64,000 bases of DNA from Gammaproteobacteria bacterium (GCA_028819565.1 JAPPLD010000029.1:34998-98997), one strand, 5' to 3'. Positions 50,319 to 64,000 are shown, counted from the stretch's first letter. Numbers and translations are program-made. The notes: a model not told the origin generated them from the letters alone.

Positions 50319-52499
50319 CTATCGGCACTCGAGTTTTGCGTAGTCGTACATGAGCCATTTGACGCCAGCGCCTTCAAAGCGCACCTGAACCCGTAAATGC
50401 GGTGGCCGACCTTCGTATTCTACGATGATGCCGGGACCGAACTTCGGGTGTGCCACCGGCGTACCTGGGACGGGCACGTCCAGATTGGCCGGAGGGGATG
50501 GGCGGGTAGCCCCGTACCGTGCTAGAAACGCGGAGGCAGGCGGAACGAAGTCTCGCGGCACCTCGGTCACCGTGTGTTCGTCGGGCAATTCCTGAAGAAA
50601 ACGCGACGGAATCAGGCCCGAGGAAGTCCGCCCAAAGATCAGCCGTTCGTAGGCATGCGTCAAGACCAACTGCTGCCGGGCGCGTGTCATGCCCACATAA
50701 CAAAGCCGCCGTTCCTCCTCCAGCGGGGAGTCCTCCCGCGTCATCGGCAAGATGCCGTCTTCCAGCCCGACGATGAACACCAGCGGAAACTCCAGCCCCT
50801 TGGCCATGTGCAGGGTCATCAGCTGAACCGAATTCCCAGGCACGCCCTCGCCCCGCTCACCCGCTTCCAGCGCCGTGCTGTCCAAGAACGCTTCCATCAA
50901 ACCAGGGCTGTCATCCTCGTCAGGCTCCTCCCAGATATCCTCGAATGCCGCGGCCGAATTCACCAGTTCCCCCAGATTCTCGCTGCGCACCTCTTCCAAC
51001 TCCCGGTCAGTCTCTTGGTACATCTCCAATAATCCGGACTGGTCCAGAATGCGCCGGATGGTTTCCGCCAATCCGCACCCATCGGTCTCCTCGCGCAAAG
51101 CCTCCAGGCATTGCTCAAATTCCGCCAGTGCCCGACCCGCACGCGAAGTGGACCGGCTCTTGACCTGTTCCTGCGCCGCCGCAAACAGCGAATCGCCAGC
51201 GGCAGAAGCCGTCGTGCGCACGGCTTCAACCGTCCCTGCGCCAATACCCCGGGGAGGAACATTGCATACCCGCTGCCAAGCAACATCGTCATTCGGGTTC
51301 AGGCACAGCCGCAGATAGGCCAGAGTGTCTTTCACTTCGCGCCGCTCGAAGAAACGGATGCCCCCGTACACCCGATAGGGGATTTGCCGGTTGTTCAGGT
51401 TTGTCTCGAAAGGCTGTGACTGCCGGTTCGTACGGTAGAGCACGGCACACTCGTCCCACCGTCCTCCGTCTTCCACCCACTGTTCGATCTTTCCGATGAC
51501 GTAGTTGGCTTCCGCTCCTCCGGTCGGCGCACTGAACACGGTGATCGGGTCTTGTTCGGCCCGGTCGGTCCACAATCGTTTCTTCAACCTGTCGTAGTTG
51601 TTCCCGATCAGCGCATTGGCCGCCTCAAGCACCGGGCTGGTGGAGCGGTAGTTCTGCTCCAACGGCCAGACCTGAACATTCTTGTGGTTTTTCTGGAAGT
51701 CGAGGATATGCCTTGGGCGCGCTCCCCGCCAACCATAGATCGATTGGTCGTCGTCTCCAACCACGAACAACGGGCGTTCGCCGCCCGCCAATAGTTCCAG
51801 CCAAGCATTCTGCAGATCGTCCACATCCTGGAATTCATCCACCAATAGATGCCGGAACCGCAATTGGTAGTGTTTCTGGACGGCTGAATGATCACGCAAC
51901 AGTTCGACGCAGCGCAGCAATAGTTCATCGAAATCTACCAAGCCGCTCTGTTCGCAGCGCCGCTCGTACCGCTCCATGACCGGGAGACGGGCTTGTTCCC
52001 GATCGCTTTCAGGCTCGATATGGCGGGCGCGCAAGCCTTCTCCCTTCTTCAGGCTGATCCACCGAATGGCATCGGCGACATCGCGCGCCTTGCGTGGCTG
52101 GTCAAGATCCCGAAGGATCTGACGAATCAGGGTTTTCTGATCCTCTCGATCCAAAATCTGGAAATTCCCGGGCAACCCGGCCTCGTCGTGAAAGCGCAAC
52201 AACATCCTGCGGGCCAGCGCATGGAACGTCCCGACCCACAAACCGCCCGCAGGCTGCCCTCGCAACCGTTCGATGCGCTCCCGCATCTCGGTCGCCGCCT
52301 TGTTGGTAAACGTAACCGTCAGGATTTCTTTCGGCTGGATATCCTGCGTCTTCACCAACCAGGCGAAACGGTGAGTCAACACCCGGGTCTTGCCCGAGCC
52401 AGCGCCCGCCAGCACCAGAGTGCAGTAATCCGGATCCGATGTGACCGCGTTGTGCTGCGCCTTGTTTAAGTCATCCAGGATCGGATCCGCCGGGGTCAT
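50319..52499 (-). CDS. uvrD: SF1A ATP-dependent DNA helicase, UvrD-like
   Basis: Uses the internal ATG at 52499 of ORF 50319..52775. It starts MTPADPILDDLNKAQHNAV, with Walker A AGAGSGKTRVL and motif II LLVDEFQDV. The C-terminus contains VAHPKFGPGIIVEYEG. Confidence 0.88.
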   Translation of the reverse strand: MTPADPILDDLNKAQHNAVTSDPDYCTLVLAGAGSGKTRVLTHRFAWLVKTQDIQPKEILTVTFTNKAATEMRERIERLRGQPAGGLWVGTFHALARRMLLRFHDEAGLPGNFQILDREDQKTLIRQILRDLDQPRKARDVADAIRWISLKKGEGLRARHIEPESDREQARLPVMERYERRCEQSGLVDFDELLLRCVELLRDHSAVQKHYQLRFRHLLVDEFQDVDDLQNAWLELLAGGERPLFVVGDDDQSIYGWRGARPRHILDFQKNHKNVQVWPLEQNYRSTSPVLEAANALIGNNYDRLKKRLWTDRAEQDPITVFSAPTGGAEANYVIGKIEQWVEDGGRWDECAVLYRTNRQSQPFETNLNNRQIPYRVYGGIRFFERREVKDTLAYLRLCLNPNDDVAWQRVCNVPPRGIGAGTVEAVRTTASAAGDSLFAAAQEQVKSRSTSRAGRALAEFEQCLEALREETDGCGLAETIRRILDQSGLLEMYQETDRELEEVRSENLGELVNSAAAFEDIWEEPDEDDSPGLMEAFLDSTALEAGERGEGVPGNSVQLMTLHMAKGLEFPLVFIVGLEDGILPMTREDSPLEEERRLCYVGMTRARQQLVLTHAYERLIFGRTSSGLIPSRFLQELPDEHTVTEVPRDFVPPASAFLARYGATRPSPPANLDVPVPGTPVAHPKFGPGIIVEYEGRPPHLRVQVRFEGAGVKWLMYDYAKLECR

Positions 52500-54040
52500 C
52501 CGCCCCCCCAGTGCAGGAATGCCAGCCAGCCAGCCATTGCCAACGCCGCGATTGCGACAACCGCCAGCCAGAGACGGGTGTGTTTGAGCTTGCGCCGGGA
52601 AGTTTCGAGTTTCGTTTGAAGCGCCGGCGAGGGATCCGGCGGTGGAGTAGCCGAAGGATCTCCAAGGAAATGCTCGACCATCTGCGGGAGGCGATGGCGC
52701 ACAAGCCGAACCAGCGCAAACAACCCGGTCTGCTCGCTCACCCAGCGATCCATGAAAGGCTTGGCAGTCGTCCACAGGTCGAGATCCGGATATAAGTCGC
52801 GGCCGACGCCTTCAATATTGACCAAGGTCTTCTGCAAAAGCAGCAGTTGCGGCTGCACTTCCATCTGGAAGCGGCTCGCGGTCTGAAACAGCCGCAGCAG
52901 CAGGTTCGCGAACGAAATCTCGGAAAACGGCCGTTGGAAGATCGGCTCGCATACCGTGCGGATGGCTGCCTCGAAATCCGCGACCCGGGTCCCGGGTGGC
53001 ACCCAGCCGGATTCCACGTGCAGTTCTGCCACCCGCCGGTAGTCGTTGTTGAAGAAAGCCGCGAGGTTGAACGCCAGGTAGCGCTGATCGGAAGCCGACA
53101 GCGATCCCATGATGCCGAAATCCACCGCACTGTATTTCGGCGACTCCGGGGTCTCCCGGGAGATGAAGATGTTGCCGGGATGCATGTCGGCATGGAAGAA
53201 ATTGTGGTCGAACACCTGGGTGAAGAAGATCTCCACACCCCGCTCGGCCAGGCATTTCAGGTCAACTCCGTGGCGCACCAATTCCTCGCGGTCCGAGATC
53301 TGGATCCCGTAGATGCGCTCCATGGTCATGACGTCCCGGGCGGTGTAGTCCCAGAACACTTCCGGCACATACAGAAGTTCACTATTCTCGAAGTTGCGGC
53401 GCAGTTGGCTAGCGTTGGCAGCTTCGCGCGTCAGGTCCAGCTCATCAAAGATAACGCCTTCGTATTCGGTTACCAGGTCCACCGGATGCAGGCGCCGGGA
53501 TCCCTCCCAGACTCGCTCAAGGAACCGAGCCAATCGGTACATCATCCGGATGTCGCGGCGAATCGTCTTCTCAATCCCGGGGCGCAACACCTTGACGATG
53601 ACGTCGATATCACCCAAGCGCGCCGCGTGCACCTGAGCCACCGAAGCGGAGGCGAGCGGCGTGGTGTCGAACTGGCTGAACATCTCCTGTATCGGCCGCT
53701 CCAATGACTGCTCGATGACCTTGCGCGCTACCTCCCCGTCGAATGGCGGCACCTGATCCTGAAGGAGGGCCAGTTCGTCGGCCAGATCAGTGGGAAGCAA
53801 GTCGCGCCGGGTCGACAGCATCTGCCCAAACTTGACGAAAATGGGTCCCAGATCTTCCAACGCGCGCCGAATGCGCTCCGCCTGCGGCCTGCGCAACCGG
53901 CGGAACCAGTTCCAGGGGAGCAGGTAAAGGAGCCCGCGTCCCAGCCGGAACCGGGACAGGGCGATTTCATCGAGGCCGTGGCGCAACAGCACCCACGGGA
54001 TATAAAGCGGCCGCGCGAGAATGCGCCCTTGTCCGTTCAT
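52496..54040 (-). CDS. ubiB: ubiquinone biosynthesis regulatory kinase-like protein UbiB
   Basis: 514 aa of the ABC1/UbiB family (FVKFGQMLSTRRDLLP, ASVAQVHAARL, HADMHPGNIF). It has a C-terminal TM. Confidence 0.93.
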   Translation of the reverse strand: MNGQGRILARPLYIPWVLLRHGLDEIALSRFRLGRGLLYLLPWNWFRRLRRPQAERIRRALEDLGPIFVKFGQMLSTRRDLLPTDLADELALLQDQVPPFDGEVARKVIEQSLERPIQEMFSQFDTTPLASASVAQVHAARLGDIDVIVKVLRPGIEKTIRRDIRMMYRLARFLERVWEGSRRLHPVDLVTEYEGVIFDELDLTREAANASQLRRNFENSELLYVPEVFWDYTARDVMTMERIYGIQISDREELVRHGVDLKCLAERGVEIFFTQVFDHNFFHADMHPGNIFISRETPESPKYSAVDFGIMGSLSASDQRYLAFNLAAFFNNDYRRVAELHVESGWVPPGTRVADFEAAIRTVCEPIFQRPFSEISFANLLLRLFQTASRFQMEVQPQLLLLQKTLVNIEGVGRDLYPDLDLWTTAKPFMDRWVSEQTGLFALVRLVRHRLPQMVEHFLGDPSATPPPDPSPALQTKLETSRRKLKHTRLWLAVVAIAALAMAGWLAFLHWGGG

Positions 54041-54603
54041 GACTGGATGCGGTCAATCCGCATTTCAAACCGCTCCAGGTCATCGCGCAGCCGGTCCACC
54101 TCGCGCACGAAGCGGTCGAGTTCGGAGGAGCTCGGCAGCAAGCCCGACTCCTCATGCAGGTAATCCCGGGCATTGCTCTCGGCCGCCCCGCCGAAATTCC
54201 GGGCCACCTGCCGGCATTCCTCAAGGGTCCGCATCATCAGCCGGGCCGGCACGTCACCGACGGCGCGTGACAGCAGTTCCTCCCAGTCGATGTCCAAGGC
54301 GGCCAGAAAGTCGCGCAAATCCTGTGCGATCTCGCCTTCGCCCTCCAGGTGGATTCCGTCGGCCCGGTCGCTGAGCACGTACCGGACGAAGGCCGCTAGA
54401 TGTCCACGGACCGCAAGATCCGCTTCTTCTCCCGGAGATTCCAGAGTCAATTTCCCGTCGTCGATGCGCAGTCCGATGGAAGGCAGCGGCAGGAGTTCCA
54501 GCCGAATCGTGCGCTGGCCCATTGCCTGCAGGCGCTTCTGCGACTCTTCGTCAGTGCGCAGGGCTTGGTCGACGAGGGCGGAAAGTGAAGCAAACATAGG
54601 CAT
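54037..54603 (-). CDS. ubiJ: ubiquinone biosynthesis accessory factor UbiJ (SCP2 domain)
   Basis: 188 aa. It lies directly upstream of ubiB with an overlap. It has an SCP2-like N-terminal half and a helical C-terminus. Confidence 0.75.
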   Translation of the reverse strand: MPMFASLSALVDQALRTDEESQKRLQAMGQRTIRLELLPLPSIGLRIDDGKLTLESPGEEADLAVRGHLAAFVRYVLSDRADGIHLEGEGEIAQDLRDFLAALDIDWEELLSRAVGDVPARLMMRTLEECRQVARNFGGAAESNARDYLHEESGLLPSSSELDRFVREVDRLRDDLERFEMRIDRIQS

Positions 54604-54681: not shown

Positions 54682-55461
54682 ATGTGCACGCATACGCGGC
54701 TGCTTTTTCTGGGCCTGCTGGCATCGCTCGGCGGCGCTGGCCAAGCGGCAGATTCGCCGTTCTCCTCGGGCTCGGACTCCGGGCTGCAGATCGCCGTACG
54801 ACTGATTACCGACAAAACCCCGGAGGAGCCGTCATCGGACGGCAGCATCGAGGAAGAGGACGCAGAATCTCCGGAACAGGCGGAAGAAGGTGCGCCCTCC
54901 GCACAAACTCCCGGCGTCCCGGCCTCACAGGAGGATCGCGCCGAAGATCAAGACCTTTTGGAGGGTTCAGAAGAAGGATCATCGCCTGCAGGGCAGGAAA
55001 CAGCCGGTGAAACCGAAGATTCCGGGATCGAAGACGGACTCGAAAGAGAACCGGAACTTGCGGAACAGGCGAGTATCGAAGAAGGGCAAGAGAGGGATCT
55101 TTCCCGAATCGAGGCCGTGCTGAACCGCGTTGACCAGATTCTGCTGGACGCGGGAATCCGGGCCCGCAAAGAACGGGAAGGAAGGGGCGACGGCGACGGG
55201 ACAACAGATGAAGACTTGTCGGATTGGGAGACACAGGGCGAAGGCGAAGGGGAAGCTGCGGAGGAAGAGGCCGAACGCGGCGGTGTCGCCGAGGGCCAGG
55301 TCCCCGGCGATGTCCCGACCGGCAAGACGCGTCCGACTCACGGCTACGAGAAAGACGACGACATCGTGACCCGGCAGGTCTGTGAACTGGCGGAACGAGA
55401 GGAAGATCCCGAGATCCGCAAACAGCTGGAGCAAAAATGCAAAAGCCTACGAGACAGTTAG
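54682..55461 (+). CDS. secreted hyper-acidic low-complexity protein (operon gene 1)
   Basis: 259 aa with the signal peptide MCTHTRLLFLGLLASLGGAGQA. By hand count about 69 of 259 residues are D/E, in runs such as IEEEDAESPEQAEEG and GEGEGEAAEEEAERG. Confidence 0.6.
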   Translation: MCTHTRLLFLGLLASLGGAGQAADSPFSSGSDSGLQIAVRLITDKTPEEPSSDGSIEEEDAESPEQAEEGAPSAQTPGVPASQEDRAEDQDLLEGSEEGSSPAGQETAGETEDSGIEDGLEREPELAEQASIEEGQERDLSRIEAVLNRVDQILLDAGIRARKEREGRGDGDGTTDEDLSDWETQGEGEGEAAEEEAERGGVAEGQVPGDVPTGKTRPTHGYEKDDDIVTRQVCELAEREEDPEIRKQLEQKCKSLRDS

Positions 55462-56621
55462 CCCTGCTTACTTTGCTGCTGGCCTTCGCCAGCGGATGCC
55501 AGACCAGCATGTCCGGCATCTACGGGGGCCTGTTCGAAAAGTCGCCGGAAGAGCCGGCTGTTGAGCCGGTACCGGAAGAATGGTATCTGGATGCCGGCAT
55601 TGTCCGGTTCAAGGGGGAAGTCGACAAGAAAGAAGTCGCCGAGGGAGACGTGTTCCCCCAGGTGCGGAAAGCCGAAACCCTGTACTTTCCCCAGCAGTTG
55701 CGCCAAGCGATGCTGCGCGGGGGCGGCTGGCGGCATGTGTGGGTGGTGCCGGAACGCGCCGTTCCGGATCTGCGCATCGAGGGCATGATCCTGCAATCGA
55801 ATGGCTCCGAACTGGACCTGAAAATCCTTGCCACCGACTCGACCGGCGAACAGTGGCTCGATCGCGTCTACAGCCATGAATTCAGCGAAACCGATTACGC
55901 CGGCGAGGATCGGGCCCGACCGATGGAGGCCCTATTCGACCAGATCGCAAAAGATCTCCTAGTCGAACGCGACCGCAGGGGAGTAGCGGCCATGAAGGAG
56001 ATCCGCGCCGTGGCGGAATTGCGGTTCGCGGAAGAGTTCGCGCCGCAGGCGTTCGAACGTTATGTCAAGGCAGACAAGGGCCGCACACGCCTGATTTCGT
56101 TGCCTGCCGAAGAAGACACGTTGTACCAACTGGTACTGCAAATCAAGGAGCGCGATGACCTCTTCGTCGAGACTCTGCAGCAATACTCGGAGGGTTTTTC
56201 AGAAAAGATCGATGCCTCGTACCGAGACTGGGCACGACAGAGTTTCTACGAACGCCGTGCGCATGACGAGGGGGTTGCCGCCAGCGTAACGCAGGGGCTT
56301 CTGAGCGCCTTGGCCATCATTGGCGGAGTCGTGGTGGCGGCCGACTCGGGGTCCTCCCCGGAAGCCCGCCAACTCGGCCAGGTACTGGTGGGGGCTGGCG
56401 CCTACGGTGCCTATGATGCCTACCAGGACTATGAAGCAACGGAAATCCACGAGGCCGCGCTCAAGGAGCTCGGACAGTCGCTCGACCTGGAGGTGGAGCC
56501 TCAGGTCGTGCAAGTAGAGAACCAGACACGCACGCTTACCGGGTCGGTCGAAGACCAGTACCAGCAGTGGCACGAAATCCTGAACGAGATCTACCTGTCG
56601 GAACGTGGCGCCCTGAACTGA
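55437..56621 (+). CDS. lipoprotein of unknown function (operon gene 2)
   Basis: 394 aa. The lipobox is LLAFASGC after MQKPTRQLALLTLL. It overlaps gene 1 by 25 nt. Confidence 0.6.
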   Translation: MQKPTRQLALLTLLLAFASGCQTSMSGIYGGLFEKSPEEPAVEPVPEEWYLDAGIVRFKGEVDKKEVAEGDVFPQVRKAETLYFPQQLRQAMLRGGGWRHVWVVPERAVPDLRIEGMILQSNGSELDLKILATDSTGEQWLDRVYSHEFSETDYAGEDRARPMEALFDQIAKDLLVERDRRGVAAMKEIRAVAELRFAEEFAPQAFERYVKADKGRTRLISLPAEEDTLYQLVLQIKERDDLFVETLQQYSEGFSEKIDASYRDWARQSFYERRAHDEGVAASVTQGLLSALAIIGGVVVAADSGSSPEARQLGQVLVGAGAYGAYDAYQDYEATEIHEAALKELGQSLDLEVEPQVVQVENQTRTLTGSVEDQYQQWHEILNEIYLSERGALN

Positions 56622-57346
56622 TTCCGGCCGCACTGGTGCTGGCGGCGGGACTGGCCGCAGGAACCGCCGCGGCCGAGAGCATCCAGGATCAGGCGCTTCG
56701 CGCCATGCTTGATTCGGACTGGACCCGGGCGGTCGAGTTGTGGGCAAAGGTGGACGGACAACGAGCCCGGGAATACCTTCAGCAGGCCCGGGCGGAGCTC
56801 CAGTTTCAGCGAACCCGGTCCCTACTGGACGAGGCCCGTGCAGCCCGACAGAAAGAAGACTGGGCCGCAGCCGATGCCGCCTATCTCAAGGCACTGGCCA
56901 TTTCCCCCCATTTGAAATCGGCACACCAAGGTCGAGAGCAGATCGCCCTGTATATCGAGGCATACCGGCGGCTGGACGCATTGAAGCTGCCGGAAGGTCT
57001 CTACGACAAGGTCATCCAGGCCCGGGCGAAAGAGTGGCTTGCATTTGTCCGAGAAAAACAGCTCGATGACCGGAAGATCGATAAGGCCCGTAAGGAACTT
57101 GTCGAGACATTGAAGCTGGCGCAAACCCCAGTCTCCCTGATCCTGACTTCGGACAACCGGTCCGAGGTTGAAATTTACGGGGTCGGGAAACTCGGACGGC
57201 TCGAACGCCAGACCCTGAAGTTGGTTCCGGGCGATTACATCGTCGTCGCCAACCGACCCGGGTACAGAGATGCGCGCGCGACGTTGAGAGCGCGCCCCGG
57301 TAAGGCTCTTACCCTGGACATTCGGTGCACGGAGTCGATCCGGTGA
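56567..57346 (+). CDS. periplasmic helical-repeat (TPR-like) + PEGA-domain protein (operon gene 3)
   Basis: 259 aa with a GTG start. The signal-like segment is LIPAALVLAAGLAAGTAAAES. The C-terminus VSLILTSDNRSEVEIYGVG...LKLVPGDYIVVANRPGYRD fits a PEGA domain. The start is uncertain because it implies a 55-nt overlap. Confidence 0.5.
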   Translation: MARNPERDLPVGTWRPELIPAALVLAAGLAAGTAAAESIQDQALRAMLDSDWTRAVELWAKVDGQRAREYLQQARAELQFQRTRSLLDEARAARQKEDWAAADAAYLKALAISPHLKSAHQGREQIALYIEAYRRLDALKLPEGLYDKVIQARAKEWLAFVREKQLDDRKIDKARKELVETLKLAQTPVSLILTSDNRSEVEIYGVGKLGRLERQTLKLVPGDYIVVANRPGYRDARATLRARPGKALTLDIRCTESIR

Positions 57347-59160
57347 TTCTTGAACACGAGTCGATCCGGGCTAAGCCATATCGGCCGCCCAAGCGGGAAA
57401 GGCGCCGCAAACGACCTTCAGCGCCCCGATTTCGTGGGGCGGGACTGGCGATTCTGCTCCTGGCATTGATGACGGCAGGCGCCTGGTACGCCATGGAGCA
57501 GGCACAACTCATCAGCTTCGAGACCGACCCTGCAACCGCTGCGGTGCACCTCGAGAGTCCCCACATGATGGTGAACGGGCAAGCCTTGCTCTGGCACGGA
57601 CAACATGTCGCGAATGTGGAAGCAGAAGGCCACTATCCGCGACAAATCGAATTCCAGGCGGGTGGAGATGCGTCGCGCACCGTGCAGGTCACTCTGAACC
57701 CCTTGCCGGGCAAACTCCGGGTCTCCACGACTCCTGAGACCGAGGGGGAAGTCCAGGTCGACGGCGAACGTGCCGGGAAGATCGGAGAAATACTGGAGGA
57801 TCTCTCTCCGGGTCAGCATGTCGTGCAGGTCAGCGTGGAGGGCTTCGAAATGCACCGGCAAACGGTAGAAATCGAGGGATACGGCCAACTGACCGAGATT
57901 GAGATTTCGCTCCAGAAGGTCACAGAACCTGCCTTGCTGACGATTTCCAGTACGCCCAAAGCTGCAGACATCCTGATTGATGGCACCTGGCGAGGACGGA
58001 CCCCGAAGCGGGTCACCTTGACTCCAGACACCCAAGTGGAAGTTGCCCTGTTACTTCCTGGACACACCCCGAACCGGCAGACCCTGAAGTTGAGGTCTGG
58101 CCGTCAAAGCCACACAGTGGCCCTAACGCCGCGCCTTGGCACCCTTGAACTTTGGCCGACGCCAGCCAACGCGACGGTTCGCGTCGATGGGCAGGTGGAA
58201 CTTCGGCGCCAGTTGCAGTTGACGCAGCGAGCCCATACCGTGGAGGTTTCCGCACCGGGCTATGTAACGAAGAAATACACCGTGGTGCCCCATCCAGACA
58301 CTCCGAAGCAGCTTTTCGCCGTCTTGCAGTCGCAGGCGAAGGTTGAACACTCCCGGCGCCAGAAGCATGAACGGAATCTCGGGCTGGTCTTCGTCGAGTT
58401 CCAGCCCCGCGGCTCGTTCGAACTCGCGACCACGCGCCGCCGAATCCCGGTGCGCCTGACTCGACCGTTCGCGATCATGGACAAGGAAGTCACCAACGCC
58501 CTGTACCGGCGCTACCGGGCCGAACATGACTCCGGAGAAGTGTTCGGCAAACGCTTGGACCGGCCAAGCCAGCCGGTAGTGCGGGTCAGTTGGGCAGATG
58601 CCGCACTGTTTGCGAACTGGATGAGCGAGCAGGCAGGGGTTGCGCCGTTCTACCGGGTACGCGACGGGCAAATCGTGGGATTCGACGCGCAGGCGACTGG
58701 ATACCGGATGCCGAGTGAAGCCGAATGGGTCTGGTTGACCCGTTCCGGAAAACGGTATGCTTGGGGCGACTTCATGCCGCCCCCGGACCGGTTCGGCAAT
58801 CTGGCGGACGCTTCCGCCTCCGACATCGTGCAGCCGACACTGGAGGAATACAACGACGGATATGCCGTCAGCGCCGACGTCGGAAGCTTCCCGCCTTCGG
58901 GCCAGGGGTTGTATGATTTGCCGGGCAACGTGGCGGAATGGATGCACGACGTGTTTCTCGACAAACTGCGGGTCTCGGCCCGCCCAGAGACGGAACGAGT
59001 CAATCCGCTGGGCGAGGCCAGCGGCCGGTACTACGTCATCCGGGGATTTGGCTGGCGCGACGGCGGGCGCAAGGAGTTGAGCCTGAGCAACCGCCGCTAC
59101 GACCGCGATCCCAAGGATGATGTGGGGTTCCGGCTGGCTTATTACCTGGACAAGCCATGA
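57343..59160 (+). CDS. membrane-anchored 4xPEGA + FGE-sulfatase (SUMF1-like) domain protein lacking catalytic Cys pair (operon gene 4)
   Basis: The basic N-terminus KRERRRKRPSAPRFRG is followed by the TM segment AGLAILLLALMTAGAWY and four PEGA-like repeats (e.g. LLTISSTPKAADILIDGTWRGRTP, LELWPTPANATVRVDG). FGE-sulfatase hallmarks are PVVRVSWADAALFANWMS, YRMPSEAEWVW, GNVAEWMHD, VIRGFGW and DVGFRLA. A GTGA junction lies at 57343 (alternative GTG at 57325). Confidence 0.75.
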   Translation: MILEHESIRAKPYRPPKRERRRKRPSAPRFRGAGLAILLLALMTAGAWYAMEQAQLISFETDPATAAVHLESPHMMVNGQALLWHGQHVANVEAEGHYPRQIEFQAGGDASRTVQVTLNPLPGKLRVSTTPETEGEVQVDGERAGKIGEILEDLSPGQHVVQVSVEGFEMHRQTVEIEGYGQLTEIEISLQKVTEPALLTISSTPKAADILIDGTWRGRTPKRVTLTPDTQVEVALLLPGHTPNRQTLKLRSGRQSHTVALTPRLGTLELWPTPANATVRVDGQVELRRQLQLTQRAHTVEVSAPGYVTKKYTVVPHPDTPKQLFAVLQSQAKVEHSRRQKHERNLGLVFVEFQPRGSFELATTRRRIPVRLTRPFAIMDKEVTNALYRRYRAEHDSGEVFGKRLDRPSQPVVRVSWADAALFANWMSEQAGVAPFYRVRDGQIVGFDAQATGYRMPSEAEWVWLTRSGKRYAWGDFMPPPDRFGNLADASASDIVQPTLEEYNDGYAVSADVGSFPPSGQGLYDLPGNVAEWMHDVFLDKLRVSARPETERVNPLGEASGRYYVIRGFGWRDGGRKELSLSNRRYDRDPKDDVGFRLAYYLDKP

Positions 59161-59375
59161 AACGGCTTTGGTGGGTGCCCCTGTGCGCGGCGACGGCCCT
59201 GGCGTGGGCCGAAGAGCCTCCCGCACCACAAGTGGAAGACGAGGATCGCGAAGTTCTCGAAGTCCTGACCGAAGAGGATCTCAAGCGGGAAACCCCACAG
59301 ATCACGCTCAAGCAATTGACCCCAAAAGAAACCATTTCCCTTGATCAAGCCGTGGATATGCCTAGTGACATTTAA
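59157..59375 (+). CDS. small secreted acidic protein (operon gene 5)
   Basis: 72 aa with the signal peptide MKRLWWVPLCAATALAWA. An ATGA junction overlaps gene 4. Confidence 0.5.
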   Translation: MKRLWWVPLCAATALAWAEEPPAPQVEDEDREVLEVLTEEDLKRETPQITLKQLTPKETISLDQAVDMPSDI

Positions 59376-60246
59376 ATTGAACAACCTGACCGAGCGCTGG
59401 CGCGAACACGAAGTGTTCTGGCAATTGCTGGCGTTAGCGGTGTCGTTCGTGCTGGTGCACGCGACATATGAACTGGTGGTGCGCCCAGTCGCCTACGAGG
59501 AGTTGCAACGCCAAGCCGTCGCCGAGGAACAGGCTGAAATCGCATCGCCGACGCTCGGCGCACGGATCGCCGTGGTCGTCAAGGACTACGAGCAGGAAGC
59601 CTGTTTTGTCGCCTTGTTCTGGGCACTGGCCATCATGTGGATGAAGCTAATGAAGCTGCGCTTCGCGCGAAGGCTGCTGAGCCAGCGTGGCCGACAAGAC
59701 GAGGAGAGCTTCCTGGAAACCCGGGAAACCGATTTGGTCCTGCCTCAAGCACACGACCGGGCACGTTTCACCGACGTGCGAGAGTACGTGCGAATGCAGG
59801 GCTATGGCAGTACCGTGCTCTACCGGGCTGCCGACGCCTGTCTGGACCGCTTCTTCACGACGCATTCCGTATCGGACGCCACTGCGGCCATGAAGGCCAG
59901 TTGCGAGATGGAGTCGGACCGGCAGGATACCGAACTGGCACTGGTGCGCTACCTGACCTGGGCCATTCCGTCACTTGGATTCATCGGCACGGTGCGCGGG
60001 ATCGGTGCAGCCTTGGGGCAGGCCGAAGAAGCCACGCGCGGCAACATCGGACCGGTGACGGAAAGCCTTGGTGTGGCATTCAATTCAACGTTTGTCGCCC
60101 TGCTGATCAGCCTGTTCATCATGCTGCTGCTGCACAAGCTGCAGGAAGCCCAGGAGTCGCTGGTGCTAGATGCCCAAGAGCATTGCCAGCATCACCTGCT
60201 GCGTTACCTGCGGGAGCGGACGCGGACGGATGAGCCTTCTTCTTAG
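59365..60246 (+). CDS. MotA/TolQ/ExbB-family proton-channel protein (operon gene 6)
   Basis: AIPSLGFIGTVRGIGAAL ... GPVTESLGVAFNSTFVALLISLFIMLL parallels the ExbB/TolQ signature (GLFGTVWGI ... VAPGIAEALIATAIGL). It has two N-terminal TM segments plus a cytoplasmic loop of about 100 aa. There is no in-frame ATG near the start, so it begins at GTG 59365 or TTG 59377. Confidence 0.8.
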   Translation: MTFKLNNLTERWREHEVFWQLLALAVSFVLVHATYELVVRPVAYEELQRQAVAEEQAEIASPTLGARIAVVVKDYEQEACFVALFWALAIMWMKLMKLRFARRLLSQRGRQDEESFLETRETDLVLPQAHDRARFTDVREYVRMQGYGSTVLYRAADACLDRFFTTHSVSDATAAMKASCEMESDRQDTELALVRYLTWAIPSLGFIGTVRGIGAALGQAEEATRGNIGPVTESLGVAFNSTFVALLISLFIMLLLHKLQEAQESLVLDAQEHCQHHLLRYLRERTRTDEPSS

Positions 60247-61141
60247 GATCGACAGCTACGTGCTGGCACAGCCCGACGGCACCGACTGGCGGGTCGAATG
60301 GTGCCTTGCCCATCGGGATTCAAAAGACGGTTGGCGATTCGGTAAAGATGCCGGTGAACGGCTGCAGCCCCGACGCACCGACAACGAAAACAACGAATAC
60401 CTAGAAGCACCGGAGACGGGAGAAGGCCAAGGCACGTCGAATATCGACCTTGCGTATCTGCAGTTGCGGGAATTCCTGCCGGAAGGGGAAGACCCGATTG
60501 ATCTTTCGGTGAGTGGAGGAATCGATCGGTCACGGCTTGAATGCCTGCTGGGCGTTCTGGAAGCCTTGGGCTACACACCCCGAAGCGTATTCCCGACCGC
60601 ACTGCTGGCAGCCCGGGACCTTGAGCCCGGACGCTACGGCATCGTTGAACTCGGACGCAGCCGCAGCTGGATCAGCACTGTTGATGTCCAGCCGGGTCGT
60701 GCGCGGCTGGAATCGGTCCAGGATTACGGGGATTTCGGCTTCTATCACCTCTTCACTCAATGGATGGAGAACGCGGCGGAAGCCTTCGCCGCCCAGCACC
60801 GTTTCGACATACATCGCAACCTCGCGACAAACCGTGGACAACTGTTCGAACAAATGTGCCAAGGCTTCGCCGGGAAATCCGGACAGATCCGGCTCAATCT
60901 GGATTCCCGGCCCGTAACACTGGATGAAAAGGTCTTTCAAGCCCGCTGGCCGAAGTCTTCTCCCGATACGGAGGGGTTGGATCTCCTGCTGCTGCCTCCC
61001 CTAACGCGTGAGTTGCCGCTACCGGAACAGGGGTTGGGTCTCCCTCTTTGTGTCAACCCCGCGCCCCAAGCCGCCTTCAACCTGGCCACCTCCGTGCCGG
61101 AAGACGGACAAGCCCACCGTTGCGTGGCTCTCTCCTGCTGA
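60230..61141 (+). CDS. hypothetical cytoplasmic protein (operon gene 7)
   Basis: 303 aa from the internal ATG of ORF 60170..61141. It has no signal peptide or TM. It overlaps gene 6 by 17 nt and abuts gene 8 (TGAATG). Confidence 0.45.
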   Translation: MSLLLRIDSYVLAQPDGTDWRVEWCLAHRDSKDGWRFGKDAGERLQPRRTDNENNEYLEAPETGEGQGTSNIDLAYLQLREFLPEGEDPIDLSVSGGIDRSRLECLLGVLEALGYTPRSVFPTALLAARDLEPGRYGIVELGRSRSWISTVDVQPGRARLESVQDYGDFGFYHLFTQWMENAAEAFAAQHRFDIHRNLATNRGQLFEQMCQGFAGKSGQIRLNLDSRPVTLDEKVFQARWPKSSPDTEGLDLLLLPPLTRELPLPEQGLGLPLCVNPAPQAAFNLATSVPEDGQAHRCVALSC

Positions 61142-62185
61142 ATGTCCAGACGCCGCCGCAGCCGTTTCTTGAACCCGTTCGGCCTGGCTTTCCTGGATGT
61201 CATGTCCTGCGGGTTGGGGGCTGCCGTCCTGCTTTTTCTGATCATTGACCACAACCTGACTGAACTGGCGCAGGCATCGGAGAGCGGCGAGGGAGATGTG
61301 CAACTGCTGGAGCAGTCGATCCAGGAACAGGAAGAACTGATCACCGAGCACCGCAGGCAGATGCGTCAACTGCAGCGCGAGCTGGAAAGCTTGGCGCAAC
61401 AGCGCGTAGCCGCCATCACCACCCAAGCCGAACTGCGCGCTCGTCAACCGAAGGCGTCCGACACCGCCCGACTTGAACGGGAACTGCGCGAACGCAAGAA
61501 GAAACTCCAAGAAGCGGAGAAAAGCAGGCAACTGAGGGCGAAAGAGGGAGAAGGACAACGCCAGTACGTGGCTGGTTTCCGAGTCGAAGGCCATCGCATT
61601 CTGATCCTGCTGGATCGCTCGGCCAGCATGCAGGACGAACATATTGCCGCGATCATCCGGAACAAGTTTCTCCCGGTGAAGTACCAGATCGAGAGCTACA
61701 AGTGGCGCTGGGCGCGTTCCATCTTTGAGTGGGTCCTCTCACACCTGCCTCAAGAGGCGCAATACCAAGTCTGGGGCTTCAACACGGCGGCAGCGCCAGC
61801 GCTGTCGAAGAGTGGATGGCTGCCGGCAAAAGACGAGAAACGGATGGAAGAGGTGATTTCGGCAGTGCAGGGCTGGGTTCCTGCGGGAGGGACCCGCCTC
61901 GATACGACCCTCAAGAAGATCGCCCAGATCAAGCCAAGGCCGGATGCAGTCTATCTGATTACGGACGGCCTGCCGACGCAGGGAAAATCCTGGTTCAAGA
62001 AAAGCCGGGTCAGCCCTTCCCAGCGCATGGAGTTTTTCCGAGAAGCAACGGGAGGCATCGCGGGCCCGCCTTTCAATATCGTCCTGCTTCCGCTTGAGGG
62101 CGACCCGGCAGCGGCCGGGGCCTACTGGGAATTTGCGATGAGGACGGACGGACAATTCCTGGCCCCGGCGGAGGACTGGCCATGA
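61142..62185 (+). CDS. ExbD/TolR-like TM helix + coiled coil + vWA (MIDAS) domain protein, paralog A (operon gene 8)
   Basis: The N-terminus MSRRRRSRFLNPFGLAFLDVMSCGLGAAVLLFLII compares with ExbD INVTPFIDVMLVLLIIF. It is followed by a heptad-rich segment of about 110 aa (QLLEQSIQEQEELITEHRRQMRQLQRELESLAQQ...). The vWA domain has MIDAS LLDRSASM, GGTRLD and LITDGLP. Confidence 0.75.
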   Translation: MSRRRRSRFLNPFGLAFLDVMSCGLGAAVLLFLIIDHNLTELAQASESGEGDVQLLEQSIQEQEELITEHRRQMRQLQRELESLAQQRVAAITTQAELRARQPKASDTARLERELRERKKKLQEAEKSRQLRAKEGEGQRQYVAGFRVEGHRILILLDRSASMQDEHIAAIIRNKFLPVKYQIESYKWRWARSIFEWVLSHLPQEAQYQVWGFNTAAAPALSKSGWLPAKDEKRMEEVISAVQGWVPAGGTRLDTTLKKIAQIKPRPDAVYLITDGLPTQGKSWFKKSRVSPSQRMEFFREATGGIAGPPFNIVLLPLEGDPAAAGAYWEFAMRTDGQFLAPAEDWP

Positions 62186-63147
62186 GGCGCGTCCGCCGGC
62201 AAGCCGACAACCGTTTGTCGTTTCTCGACGTAGTCAGTTGCGGGTTCGGGGCCATGGTGTTGCTAATTCTGATTACTAAAAACACTGTGGGTGAGCCGGT
62301 CGAAGATCTCCGAGCCCAAATCGAAGCGCTGCAGGAACAACTCGCACGCGTCATCCAGGTCCAGGCAAGTCTGGCGGCCGAACAATTTTCGGCACAAGCC
62401 CGGGTACACGCTCAGCAGGAGAAACTGCAGGACGACCGAAAGGCCGTAGTGGAAGCACGACAGGCGAACGCCGGTGCCCAAGCGCAAGCGCTGATCGAGG
62501 CGGATCTGAAGAATGCGCTTCAACGCCTCAATGAAGAAATGAGGCGGCTGAACCTGACTGCATCCAAGCCGGATGTGATCGGCGGCATTCCGGCCGACAG
62601 CGAGTACATCATCTTTATCGTCGACACGTCCGGCAGCATGAAACGGTTTGCCTGGAGGGCCGCGAGGCAGCAGCTGGTGACCCTACTGGACGCCTACCCG
62701 AAAGTGCGTGGACTCCAGGTGATGAACGACATGGGCACGTATATGTTCAGCGGCTACCGGGGGCGCTGGATTCCAGATACGCCCGCAAGGCGGAAAGTTC
62801 TCCTGCAGCGTTTTGATTCCTGGCATTCGTACAGCAATTCAAGCCCCGTCGAGGGCATCCTGGAAGCCATCAAGCGGTTCCGCATGAAATCCGACAAGAT
62901 CAGCCTGTACATCTTCGGCGACGAATACACCGGCGAGTCGATCCAGCGGGTCATCGACACGGTGGAGGATCTCAACTACCGGGATGGAAAGCGGCAGGTC
63001 CGCATTCATGCGGTCGGGTTCTTCACCCGGGCGCAGATCGAAAAGATTGATCCAAAATACGCCGACACCACTAGTCGATTCGCAGCCCTGATGAGGGAGT
63101 TGACTCGGCAGAACGGCGGGACTTTTTTGGGGGTTACGGTGGATTGA
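62182..63147 (+). CDS. ExbD/TolR-like TM helix + coiled coil + vWA (MIDAS) domain protein, paralog B (operon gene 9)
   Basis: The N-terminus is MRRVRRQADNRLSFLDVVSCGFGAMVLLILI. The coiled coil contains LRAQIEALQEQLARVIQVQASLAAEQ... The vWA domain has FIVDTSGSM and YIFGDE. An ATGA junction overlaps gene 8. Confidence 0.75.
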   Translation: MRRVRRQADNRLSFLDVVSCGFGAMVLLILITKNTVGEPVEDLRAQIEALQEQLARVIQVQASLAAEQFSAQARVHAQQEKLQDDRKAVVEARQANAGAQAQALIEADLKNALQRLNEEMRRLNLTASKPDVIGGIPADSEYIIFIVDTSGSMKRFAWRAARQQLVTLLDAYPKVRGLQVMNDMGTYMFSGYRGRWIPDTPARRKVLLQRFDSWHSYSNSSPVEGILEAIKRFRMKSDKISLYIFGDEYTGESIQRVIDTVEDLNYRDGKRQVRIHAVGFFTRAQIEKIDPKYADTTSRFAALMRELTRQNGGTFLGVTVD

Positions 63148-63160
63148 GTATTAAAGAGAA

Positions 63161-63180
63161 ACGCCTCCCGGAGGAGGCGT
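63161..63180. terminator. GC-rich hairpin between convergent genes (possible terminator)
   Basis: ACGCCTCC (63161-63168) pairs with GGAGGCGT (63173-63180) around the loop CGGA. A T-rich tail appears only when read on the minus strand (TTCTCTTTAAT). Confidence 0.4.
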
Positions 63181-63369
63181 CGGGCCAGCGATACTCTCAC
63201 TGGCGGGGTAGCATCATTATAAATTATCCGACCGACATATCCAGAATCCTCCGCTACCAATCGAGCCCGCGAGTGATTGCTAGCCGCAAAATATCCAACT
63301 CGTGTTCAATTTTGTAGGGACAAGGCCTCCGGGGACCCCCTGGCCCACAGGCATTGTTGCCGGAATGGT

Positions 63370-63987
63370 TCACGTGATGAACGTTCCGTCCAAAATCCAG
63401 ATGAGCCCCTCTAGTCGCGCCACCCAGCCCCCGGTCAATGGGATTTCGGCTCCCAGCCCGATAACCCAACCGGTTTCCGTGGATCGATCGTGAAAGGAAT
63501 CGTCGGGATCCACCGTCCTAGGCCGACCCAACCCAAAATCAACGTCAACGACGAAGTTTTCGATTCGGGCACGCGCCAATCCTCCCGTGGCAAACACCGT
63601 CACGGAACCGAACGATTTTTCGATTCCGACCCGAGCCGTGGTAATCCACTGAAACTCCACCACGGCCGTCTCGTCCAAGGCCCAAGGGCGGGGGCCGAGC
63701 TGGTTGGTCTGAGCTTCCAAGTCACCGATGGTGCCGTCCAGTTCAAGCCGGATCGTGGCTCCACCCAAGTCGAATTTCTTTCCGATCAGCACTCCGCCGA
63801 TGAAACCGGCGTCCCCGTAGCGAGTGACCCAACCGGGGACCGGATACGCAAAACCACTCACATCGGTCAGCCGATTGTCGATTTCGCCGGAGCCCACGAA
63901 AACGCCTGCGTAGGCCCCCGACCCATCCTCCGCAGCATAAGCGGGGCCACTTGCCGTAACCATAAGAAGGGCAAATGCCCCAAGCAC
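63370..63987 (-). CDS. outer-membrane beta-barrel-type protein (N-terminus may extend past window end)
   Basis: 205 aa from a GTG start. It has the signal-like segment ALLMVTASGPAYA and an alternating Gly/aromatic beta-strand pattern (GFIGGVLIGKKF, VFATGGLARARI, GWVIGLGAEI). The frame stays open upstream to position 64000. Confidence 0.5.
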   Translation of the reverse strand: MLGAFALLMVTASGPAYAAEDGSGAYAGVFVGSGEIDNRLTDVSGFAYPVPGWVTRYGDAGFIGGVLIGKKFDLGGATIRLELDGTIGDLEAQTNQLGPRPWALDETAVVEFQWITTARVGIEKSFGSVTVFATGGLARARIENFVVDVDFGLGRPRTVDPDDSFHDRSTETGWVIGLGAEIPLTGGWVARLEGLIWILDGTFIT

Positions 63988-64000
63988 CGTGCCGCTTGAG

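Follow-up and report, generated by a model that had tools for sequence, protein, structure and literature searches.

A nine-gene operon of a sponge-associated gammaproteobacterium that probably encodes a proton-motive-force-driven envelope motor with paired vWA/MIDAS subunits

To our knowledge, only a few outputs have been assigned to ion-driven motors of the 5:2 type, namely flagellar rotation, Ton-dependent uptake, Tol-Pal function, gliding together with the type IX secretion system (T9SS), and Zorya. A further group has been described in a 2025 paper in Mol Biol Evol (PMC12204202), whose section 8 and Fig. 4c-d present TolQ-like genes that have no tolR or exbD nearby and are located beside genes for von Willebrand factor A (vWA) proteins, mostly heterologous pairs in which each protein carries an Asp-bearing trans-pore helix (TPH-vWA). 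The AlphaFold3 (AF3) models shown there put these helices inside a TolQ-like pentamer, among its ring of Thr residues. According to the same section, which took its seed from Idiomarina loihiensis, most members of the family belong to Proteobacteria and Verrucomicrobia, and no phenotypes are known. Here we analyze a stretch of 64,000 nucleotides (64 kb; hereafter, the window) from a gammaproteobacterial assembly (GCA_028819565.1, JAPPLD010000029.1:34998-98997), in which nine consecutive genes, designated g1 to g9, combine a channel protein of the TolQ type (g6) with two paralogous vWA proteins (g8 and g9) and a set of envelope proteins. We consider it fairly probable that this operon encodes an envelope motor of the 5:2 type that is driven by the proton-motive force (PMF), holds g8 and g9 in the pore of g6 and performs a housekeeping role in the envelope.

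By homology, g6 is a MotA/TolQ/ExbB protein: it matches the Pfam family MotA_ExbB with E = 5.7e-12 and the NCBIfam model tolQ with 1.8e-5, and over the last two of its transmembrane helices it can be aligned with the solved structures of TolQ, MotA and PomA. Two Thr residues, T217 in a GTV motif and T250 in an NST motif, are invariant in all orthologues compared (81/81) and coincide in the alignment with the GTV and A-T positions of TolQ at which Thr is present (T145 and T178). The channel postulated in an initial annotation of this DNA is borne out by the Pfam match and by the invariance of both pore Thr residues. The dN/dS of g6 is 0.05, the operon minimum. This protein is presumed to form the pentameric ring of the motor, and it is found together with g8 and g9 in 95-99 of the 99 loci collected from related genomes. 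In two metagenome-assembled genomes (MAGs; L065 and L078), the best MotA-like match is placed after g9 and not before g7.

In both vWA proteins, a short basic tail, likewise found before the transmembrane helix of ExbD and TolR, precedes the only membrane-spanning helix, which has the motif F-L-D-[VI]-x-x-C-G-F-G-A; the chain continues with a helical stalk and ends in a vWA domain. The Asp of this motif is invariant in both paralogues (Asp19 within FLDVMSCG in g8, 68/68; Asp16 within FLDVVSCG in g9, 78/78). The Pfam match of g9 to VWA (2.6e-6) is above the cutoff and that of g8 to VWA_2 (1.1e-5) slightly below it; neither protein yields a match to ExbD (PF02472) or to the MotB/OmpA periplasmic domain in Pfam or NCBIfam. 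For g8, the vWA fold is confirmed at the level of an AlphaFold2 (AF2) model based on a 68-sequence alignment, with a mean predicted local distance difference test score (pLDDT) of 78.6, in which the transmembrane helix spans residues 14-45 and the vWA domain residues 150-347 (pLDDT ~95), and the head of which retrieves vWA domains only in Foldseek searches, for example, those of ITIH1, the anthrax receptors and BatB. The residues of the metal ion-dependent adhesion site (MIDAS) are invariant in both proteins and comprise D158/S160/S162/T251/D275 in g8 (DxSxS, Thr/Ser, Asp) and D148/S150/S152 (DTSGS), the conserved SNSSP loop and D247 (GD) in g9. The Pfam matches, the g8 model with its structural neighbors and the invariant MIDAS residues all agree with the vWA/MIDAS heads proposed initially; the coiled coil of about 110 residues proposed to carry these heads has to be amended, in that the stalk is indeed helical but the model, at modest confidence, divides its ~85 helical residues into two or more segments (in g8, helices 51-101 and 108-135, pLDDT ~50-82). 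The membrane Asp and the MIDAS Asp are separated by 138-156 residues in proteins of the g8 type and by 132-146 in those of the g9 type.

That g8 and g9 serve as the pore subunits of g6 is suggested by the invariance of the Asp in both proteins and by the fact that they are always paired and adjoin g6, by the lack of an ExbD/TolR homologue in the window or near the 99 loci, and by a fusion of the two heads on metagenomic contigs. Searches with phmmer, for which the E. coli ExbD and TolR sequences served as queries, detected no homologue in the 64 kb window and a single, insignificant match in the surroundings of the 99 loci (~8-10 kb, as far as the contigs reach). The fusion is a secreted protein of 473 amino acids (P0216; L179:8001-9422, also in L180 and L181) that joins two vWA heads, one of the g9 type and one of the g8 type, has no transmembrane helix, stalk or motor, and is encoded among transposase genes; proteins of this type are present on at least five metagenomic contigs from several samples. 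P0216 is either a Rosetta-stone fusion or a remnant of a rearranged operon, and it suggests that the heads of g8 and g9 work together. The narrow range and the covariation of the stalk lengths, the invariant MIDAS residues and the independent AF3-based prediction of this architecture in PMC12204202 likewise count in favor of the motor.

From these features, we infer a 5:1:1 assembly, its rotation, the identity of its ligands and its physiological output. Five copies of g6 would form a ring in the inner membrane, and its pore would hold the transmembrane helices of g8 and g9 next to each other as a heterodimer. Protons would pass via D19 of g8, D16 of g9 and T217/T250 of g6, and their passage would turn the g8-g9 pair relative to the ring. 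A paired stalk of ~85-100 residues, ~12-15 nm long if extended, would carry two different vWA heads into the periplasm, where their intact MIDAS sites would grip an acidic residue of a partner, such that the PMF would become a pulling or twisting force on a complex of the outer envelope. The partners of the heads would most likely be g4 (PEGA/GldK-like), g3 (TPR-PEGA), the g2 lipoprotein and the secreted g1 and g5, whereas g7, a protein with an Hsp70 fold, might dock on the cytoplasmic face of the ring as an anchor or regulator. Transmission of force to a scaffold close to peptidoglycan or the outer membrane is favored because the other products are periplasmic or outer-membrane proteins, two of them with PEGA domains, which have been grouped with peptidoglycan-associating or -binding domains by Kaur et al. 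(PMC7159879). Our best guess is that the output is a housekeeping one, such as the tethering of the outer membrane or of peptidoglycan or the handling of outer-membrane proteins and lipoproteins, and is neither defence nor motility.

Among the putative envelope partners, for which signal peptides and lipoboxes were judged by eye with the help of a hydropathy plot, g4 matches the Pfam families FGE-sulfatase (7.8e-31; FGE, formylglycine-generating enzyme) and PEGA (3.2e-20), and is anchored by a transmembrane helix at residues 38-57 (numbered from the start at 57325) that is preceded by a basic cytoplasmic tail. This protein had been described as an inner-membrane-anchored pseudo-enzyme with four PEGA domains and an FGE-like domain, of which the anchor, the FGE fold and the lack of Cys residues stand, whereas the PEGA count is less certain: two stretches are scored by Pfam, and self-similarity reveals three clear repeats and a weaker fourth one (z up to 7.5). 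The best PDB matches of g4 are PorK/GldK-type lipoproteins and true FGEs at ~5e-13 (4-6e-13), and the NCBIfam model GldK is matched with 1.3e-18, at 67.6 bits against a cutoff of 350, with the C-terminal half alone aligning. Two identities can be ruled out for g4. It has zero cysteines and hence lacks the paired catalytic Cys of the formylglycine-generating enzyme (FGE/SUMF1), so that the two-Cys FGE chemistry is impossible and the term pseudo-enzyme is fair in that sense; and it is not a GldK/PorK orthologue, given the score far below the cutoff and the presence of a transmembrane anchor instead of a lipobox.

The window g3 is a short representative of its family (259 amino acids vs a median of 514 among the orthologues), and its matches to TPR_2 (E = 0.045, sub-threshold) and PEGA (0.097) are weak. 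Accordingly, the TPR/PEGA assignment made for this protein fails for the TPR part when the window sequence is taken by itself, and is recovered through the orthologues, a longer one of which (L003) contains a clear TPR region (TPR_1, 5.7e-13), and through the C-terminal domain, which resembles the PEGA modules of g4 (z = 5-6). The lipoprotein status of g2, also claimed before, is sustained by the lipobox (...FASGC), the Cys21 of which is invariant in 29/29 orthologues; this protein contains a Gly/Ala-rich hydrophobic segment at 280-306, has no Pfam relative, and its orthologue profile gave no match in the PDB, while one orthologue showed a weak match to C19orf12 (glycine-zipper). The g1 protein combines a signal-like N-terminus with low complexity and a net charge of -45, has no Pfam family, and evolves with dN/dS of 0.19-0.31. 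The idea that this hyper-acidic protein is the ligand of the MIDAS sites is weak, given that the acidic part is not conserved: only the C-terminal ~45 residues are (DDDIVTRQ...DPEIRKQLEQ), and the L003 orthologue is Gly-rich rather than acidic. The small g5 (dN/dS 0.12-0.20) has no family match.

For g7, which had been listed as a cytoplasmic unknown, a fold can now be proposed. An Hsp70/actin-like (ASKHA) fold with degenerate nucleotide-binding motifs is supported by an AF2 model of low confidence (pLDDT 56, predicted TM-score 0.60), which is used here at the fold level and the quality of which suffers because the homologue search reached close relatives only; its top Foldseek matches are Hsp70 nucleotide-binding domains (E = 1e-7, TM-score 0.43). 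In a profile of 33 g7 orthologues, the middle part gives weak matches to Hsp70 proteins (0.01-0.1; SSB1 0.0095) and the C-terminal part matches FHA domains (EssC 2e-4, KIF13B 1.2e-3). ATPase activity is doubtful because ELND... and HLDxxLHQ take the place of the Gly-rich phosphate loops, which are not conserved, and the protein probably serves as a scaffold instead. The C-terminal FHA-like domain of ~130 residues is present in most orthologues (e.g. L003:8662-9999) and has been lost in the Porisulfidus clade (the window, L001, L009 and L011), the window protein having 303 amino acids compared to a median of 443. No kinase or phosphatase was detected among the cluster genes scanned against Pfam. 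In two Colwellia MAGs (L073 and L086), the g7 gene is absent between g6 and g8.

Between the window g8 and its counterpart in “Candidatus Porisulfidus sp. TsSOB”, a sulfur oxidizer that lives in association with sponges, identity is 97%; for complete Porisulfidus chromosomes of 1.6 Mb, it is 86-88%, so judged by protein identity the window comes from a sponge symbiont of the genus Candidatus Porisulfidus. When one genome per GTDB species was scanned for the g8 pattern, relatives turned up in at least 578-591 species. The carriers are overwhelmingly marine or aquatic Gammaproteobacteria and include Pseudohongiellaceae, Halieaceae, Cellvibrionaceae and many Microbulbifer species, as well as Maricurvus, Halioxenophilus, Marinibactrum, Kineobactrum, Bowmanella, Pseudoalteromonas denitrificans, Colwellia, Thalassotalea and Thalassomonas; no Idiomarina appears among the best-ranked loci (80 of at least 599 rows) of three genome scans, some of which reached close relatives only. 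When 1.84 billion representative proteins were searched exhaustively with HMMER, the g8 family comprised 448 clusters (50% identity) at E <= 1e-30, and the number rose to no more than 2,875 at E <= 1e-3; the family is therefore distinct from generic vWA proteins. Several MAGs carry organism names that do not fit this pattern (Klebsiella for L012, L021, L023 and L076; Phenylobacterium for L047 and L096; Sulfomarinibacter for L039), which probably reflects mislabeling or binning contamination, not horizontal transfer.

Conservation of the gene set was assessed by tblastn comparison of the nine proteins with 84 loci and by clustering of all open reading frames (ORFs) in the 99 loci. The gene order g2-g3-g4-(g5)-g6-g7-g8-g9 recurs at 35-48% identity in unrelated chromosomal contexts, and the lower counts of some genes (Table 1) are largely explained by contig ends. 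The survey of gene neighborhoods that had been suggested shows a core that co-occurs in hundreds of genomes, but not the patchy pattern expected of defence islands; in Microbulbifer, the cluster is present in many species of the genus. Free-living relatives have extra genes on the + strand whose counterparts are missing from the 64 kb window: 3' of g9, two small lipoproteins of ~220 (77 loci) and ~230 (68 loci) amino acids and an M48 metallopeptidase lipoprotein of ~490 amino acids (49 loci), and, on the 5' side, a TPR protein (48 loci) with a weak TonB_C-like end (E = 0.067). Extended clusters of this kind are located at L003:12157-15053, L091:12137-15010 and L091:185-1438. The window symbiont holds a trimmed version of the cluster, given that these genes are missing and that both g3 and g7 are shortened.

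ORF calling recovered the nine co-directional genes on the + strand with the boundaries, overlaps and abutments that had been noted before. The overlaps amount to 25 nucleotides between g1 and g2, 55 between g2 and g3, and 17 between g6 and g7 when the g7 ATG at 60230 is used; the g3 stop shares nucleotides with an in-frame GTG (57343), ATGA junctions are found at 59157 and 62182, and TGA-ATG occurs at 61139-61144. These junctions, together with the recurrence of the gene order among the ~100 sampled loci, support the earlier view that the nine genes form one tightly coupled operon and go well beyond what chance would produce. A terminator scan found no convincing internal terminator within the operon, and a search of the full 64 kb against Rfam gave no family at or above its gathering threshold. 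All nine ORFs, including g1, g5 and g7, which lack a family match, are real genes, because dN/dS of about 0.05-0.27, calculated against three relatives (dS ~0.5-1.1), indicates purifying selection; with a fourth, more distant relative, the values are similar where computable.

Table 1. Features of the operon in the window and occurrence of the genes among the 99 loci
Feature	Position	Strand	ORF call or prediction	Loci	Remark on occurrence
g1	54682-55461	+	ORF call; secreted, highly acidic, low-complexity protein	65/99	g1-slot family
g2	55437-56621	+	ORF call; predicted outer-membrane lipoprotein	73/99	ORF clustering
g3	56567-57346	+	ORF call; exported or anchored TPR protein, PEGA-like beta domain at C-terminus	75/99	ORF clustering
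g4	57325/57343-59160	+	ORF call; type-II inner-membrane protein with PEGA and FGE-sulfatase fold	89/99	ORF clustering
g5	59157-59375	+	ORF call; small secreted acidic protein, 72 amino acids	at least 48/99	slot with small + strand ORF
g6	59341-60246	+	ORF call; MotA/TolQ/ExbB-family channel subunit	95/99	adjoins vWA genes
g7	60170/60230-61141	+	ORF call; cytoplasmic, Hsp70/actin-like (ASKHA) fold	95/99	slot filled in 91/95 loci with both g6 and g8
g8	61142-62185	+	ORF call; transmembrane helix with Asp19, helical stalk, vWA/MIDAS	99/99	always a paralogous pair with g9; 196 proteins for g8 and g9 together
g9	62182-63147	+	ORF call; g8 paralogue, transmembrane helix with Asp16, stalk, vWA/MIDAS	99/99	always a paralogous pair with g8; counted together with g8
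GC-rich hairpin	63160-63181	.	likely terminator, 13 nucleotides past the g9 stop; scored on the - strand by the scan, no T-run on the + strand		

Upstream, the operon is flanked on the - strand by a divergent SCP2/UbiJ-like gene, ubiB (ABC1) and a UvrD-type helicase gene, and downstream by a gene for a small outer-membrane beta-barrel protein, which accompanies the operon in the window and in L005. In E. coli and many other Gammaproteobacteria, the ubi genes form a single contiguous operon. In the Porisulfidus lineage, the cluster sits between ubiE and ubiJ-ubiB, on the opposite strand, and this location is kept by relatives down to 48% identity, so the cluster has the appearance of an old insertion by which the ubi operon was split; for the window itself, ubiE should be found just beyond position 64000. 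The coordinates of this context are 50319-54603 and 63370-63987 in the window, L005:12887-13615, L007:12152-12880 and L001:12062-12793.

The placement of g8 and g9 in the pore has to be weighed against an unlikely alternative, in which these proteins act beside the motor in the manner of TolA or TonB, or independently of it like BatA and BatB, and g6 pairs with an ExbD/TolR protein encoded elsewhere or works alone. The initial annotation had called g8 and g9 ExbD-like, and this holds only in part: they are two single-pass proteins with an invariant Asp, but homology to ExbD is not significant in profile tests. In hhalign, the Asp of g8 and g9 falls in register with D23 of E. coli TolR and D25 of E. 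coli ExbD, with E = 0.09-0.14 and a probability of <1%, and a 38-column profile of the helix finds neither ExbD nor TolR in the PDB, only a chance match to NDUFB4. Furthermore, the g8 stalk comes from a monomer model at moderate confidence and is interrupted at 46-50 and 102-107, the covariation of g8 and g9 stalk lengths (r = 0.88, 94 loci) is uncorrected for phylogeny, and g7 lies between g6 and g8. Apart from the register of the Asp, which favors it, these points weigh against the pore arrangement, and the lack of statistical support for an ExbD-type helix also speaks for the alternative, as do the presence of BatB among the structural neighbors of the g8 head and the separate vWA family at the motor edge described in the vWA section of PMC12204202. 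Conversely, a passive anchor would hardly account for an invariant Asp in the middle of the helix of both paralogues, the S-x3-H spacing of the TonB-type SHLS motif is missing from the helix as read from the sequence, no ExbD/TolR gene lies near any of the 99 loci within the range searched, and the MoxR AAA+ and DUF58 genes are absent from the nine genes and from the extended clusters of L003 and L091.

If g8 and g9 are indeed the pore subunits, the output of the motor could still be sought in surface motility, adhesion or secretion, with the motor moving vWA adhesin-type heads or a GldK/PorK-like ring, after the models of the Myxococcus Agl-Glt system with its vWA adhesin CglB and of the Bacteroidetes GldLM-GldK machinery (T9SS/gliding). 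This reading, which we also hold to be improbable, draws on the FGE domain of g4, which matches PorK/GldK as well as true FGEs and scores in the GldK model, on the motor-linked vWA proteins that are reported to act in gliding (PMC9946355), and on the gliding role floated in the vWA section of PMC12204202 for a separate, TolA/TonB-like vWA family. Against it, g4 is no orthologue of GldK by its bit score, and its anchor lies in the inner membrane, in contrast to the outer-membrane lipoproteins GldK and PorK; the subset of conserved families scanned with Pfam includes no outer-membrane beta-barrel, secretin, GldN/PorN, GldL/M or surface adhesin; heads on an inner-membrane stalk of at most ~15 nm would leave the cell surface out of reach; and the cluster is retained in the reduced genome of an intracellular or extracellular sponge symbiont. 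Anti-phage defence similar to Zorya, in which a MotA-like motor senses perturbation of the envelope and signals inward, was among the roles initially envisaged and now appears highly improbable. Such a role would fit a motor of the 5:2 type that is extended in the periplasm in an unusual way and has a partner in the cytoplasm, and there are a weak match to ZorA (E = 0.03) and the FHA-like domain of the g7 orthologues; however, none of the nine proteins has a significant PADLOC match, no nuclease, NTPase or other effector domain was found in Pfam or NCBIfam, no copies were detected on 72,556 plasmids, 50,697 phages or IMG/VR contigs, the cluster has housekeeping flanks and a stable position across the lineage, and it occurs in many species of one genus, such as Microbulbifer, and not patchily. 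The housekeeping character of the motor is favored because the flanking genes are of the ubiJ/ubiB/uvrD type and the locus is kept by distant relatives, because the cluster is retained in the 1.6 Mb symbiont chromosomes with dN/dS of at most 0.27, and because plasmid, phage and viral copies are lacking.

The assumption that the system is undescribed, with no motor known to present vWA heads, does not hold, as the pairing of motor and vWA proteins was anticipated in silico in 2025 by the vWA section of PMC12204202. Literature searches with combinations of the domains (PEGA, FGE, vWA, MotA/ExbB, FHA and Hsp70) found a description of the cluster in that paper only; PMC12505986, PMC7159879 and a Ferrigenium preprint concern other systems. 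PMC12204202 does not mention PEGA or sulfatase, and its vWA passages include no Hsp70-like/FHA protein, lipoproteins or M48 peptidase. The conserved accessory set (PEGA/FGE protein, TPR-PEGA protein, lipoprotein and Hsp70-like partner) is discussed in no paper that we found and is possibly new. The present analysis adds this accessory module, the fold of g7, a minimal nine-gene form in a genome-reduced symbiont, evidence against a role in defence, the names of cultured carriers that are open to genetic work (Microbulbifer spp., Pseudoalteromonas denitrificans DSM 6059, Maricurvus nonylphenolicus and Pseudohongiella acticola), and specific residues that can be mutated. The operon can be regarded as a naturally compact, “minimal” representative of a further class of motors that is widespread and in which the inner subunits would form a heterodimer with metal-dependent adhesion domains at its end. 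If its function is general envelope maintenance, it would represent a new way for Gram-negative bacteria to energize the outer envelope. More tentatively, and with considerable doubt, the set of nine to ~13 genes might constitute a complete, undescribed trans-envelope machine, a third housekeeping energy-transduction system beside Ton and Tol-Pal, in which the MIDAS heads would work on a scaffold of the PEGA/GldK-like protein and outer-membrane lipoproteins, together with the M48 protease in free-living species, under the control of the pseudo-Hsp70/FHA protein from the cytoplasm. Such a system, if real, would be important enough to be retained in genome-reduced symbionts.

Compared to the known systems, the operon shares with TolQ-TolR-TolA/Pal/CpoB and ExbB-ExbD-TonB the family of the A subunit, an Asp-bearing inner helix and the general logic of transmitting the PMF of the inner membrane to the outer envelope. 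Its TPR protein and outer-membrane lipoprotein are comparable to CpoB and Pal, respectively, and the upstream TPR protein of the free-living relatives, with its weak TonB_C-like end, recalls the Ton system. Unlike these systems, the operon encodes no ExbD/TolR periplasmic domain, the window contains no separate TolA/TonB, the proposed B subunits would pair as a heterodimer whose members have long stalks and MIDAS heads, and g2 lacks an OmpA/Pal domain. GldL-GldM and PorL-PorM resemble the motor proposed here in being a 5:2 motor with a long periplasmic arm on the dimeric subunit, and their system includes, in GldK/PorK, an FGE-fold pseudo-enzyme to which g4 is similar at the domain level; the motor subunits, however, come from other families, the operon has no GldN/PorN, Sov or T9SS cargo signal, and g4 differs from GldK in its inner-membrane anchor, its PEGA spacers and its score far below the GldK cutoff. 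ZorA-ZorB of Zorya likewise has a MotAB-like 5:2 unit, an atypical extension and extra partner proteins, but in Zorya the extension is the cytoplasmic tail of ZorA, which leads to ZorC/ZorD, whereas here it is periplasmic and located on the B subunits, with neither ZorC/D-like proteins nor a PADLOC match in the operon. The Bat operon, too, has two paralogous membrane-anchored vWA proteins and TPR proteins, and BatB is structurally close to the g8 head; it is built, however, on a MoxR AAA+ ATPase and DUF58, neither of which is encoded in the operon, and has no MotA-like channel. The system would work like the Ton, Tol, GldLM and Zorya motors, belongs to none of these and is not of the Bat/MoxR type; compared by description with the TPH-vWA class, as presented in the vWA section of PMC12204202, g6, g8 and g9 display all of its sequence-level features.

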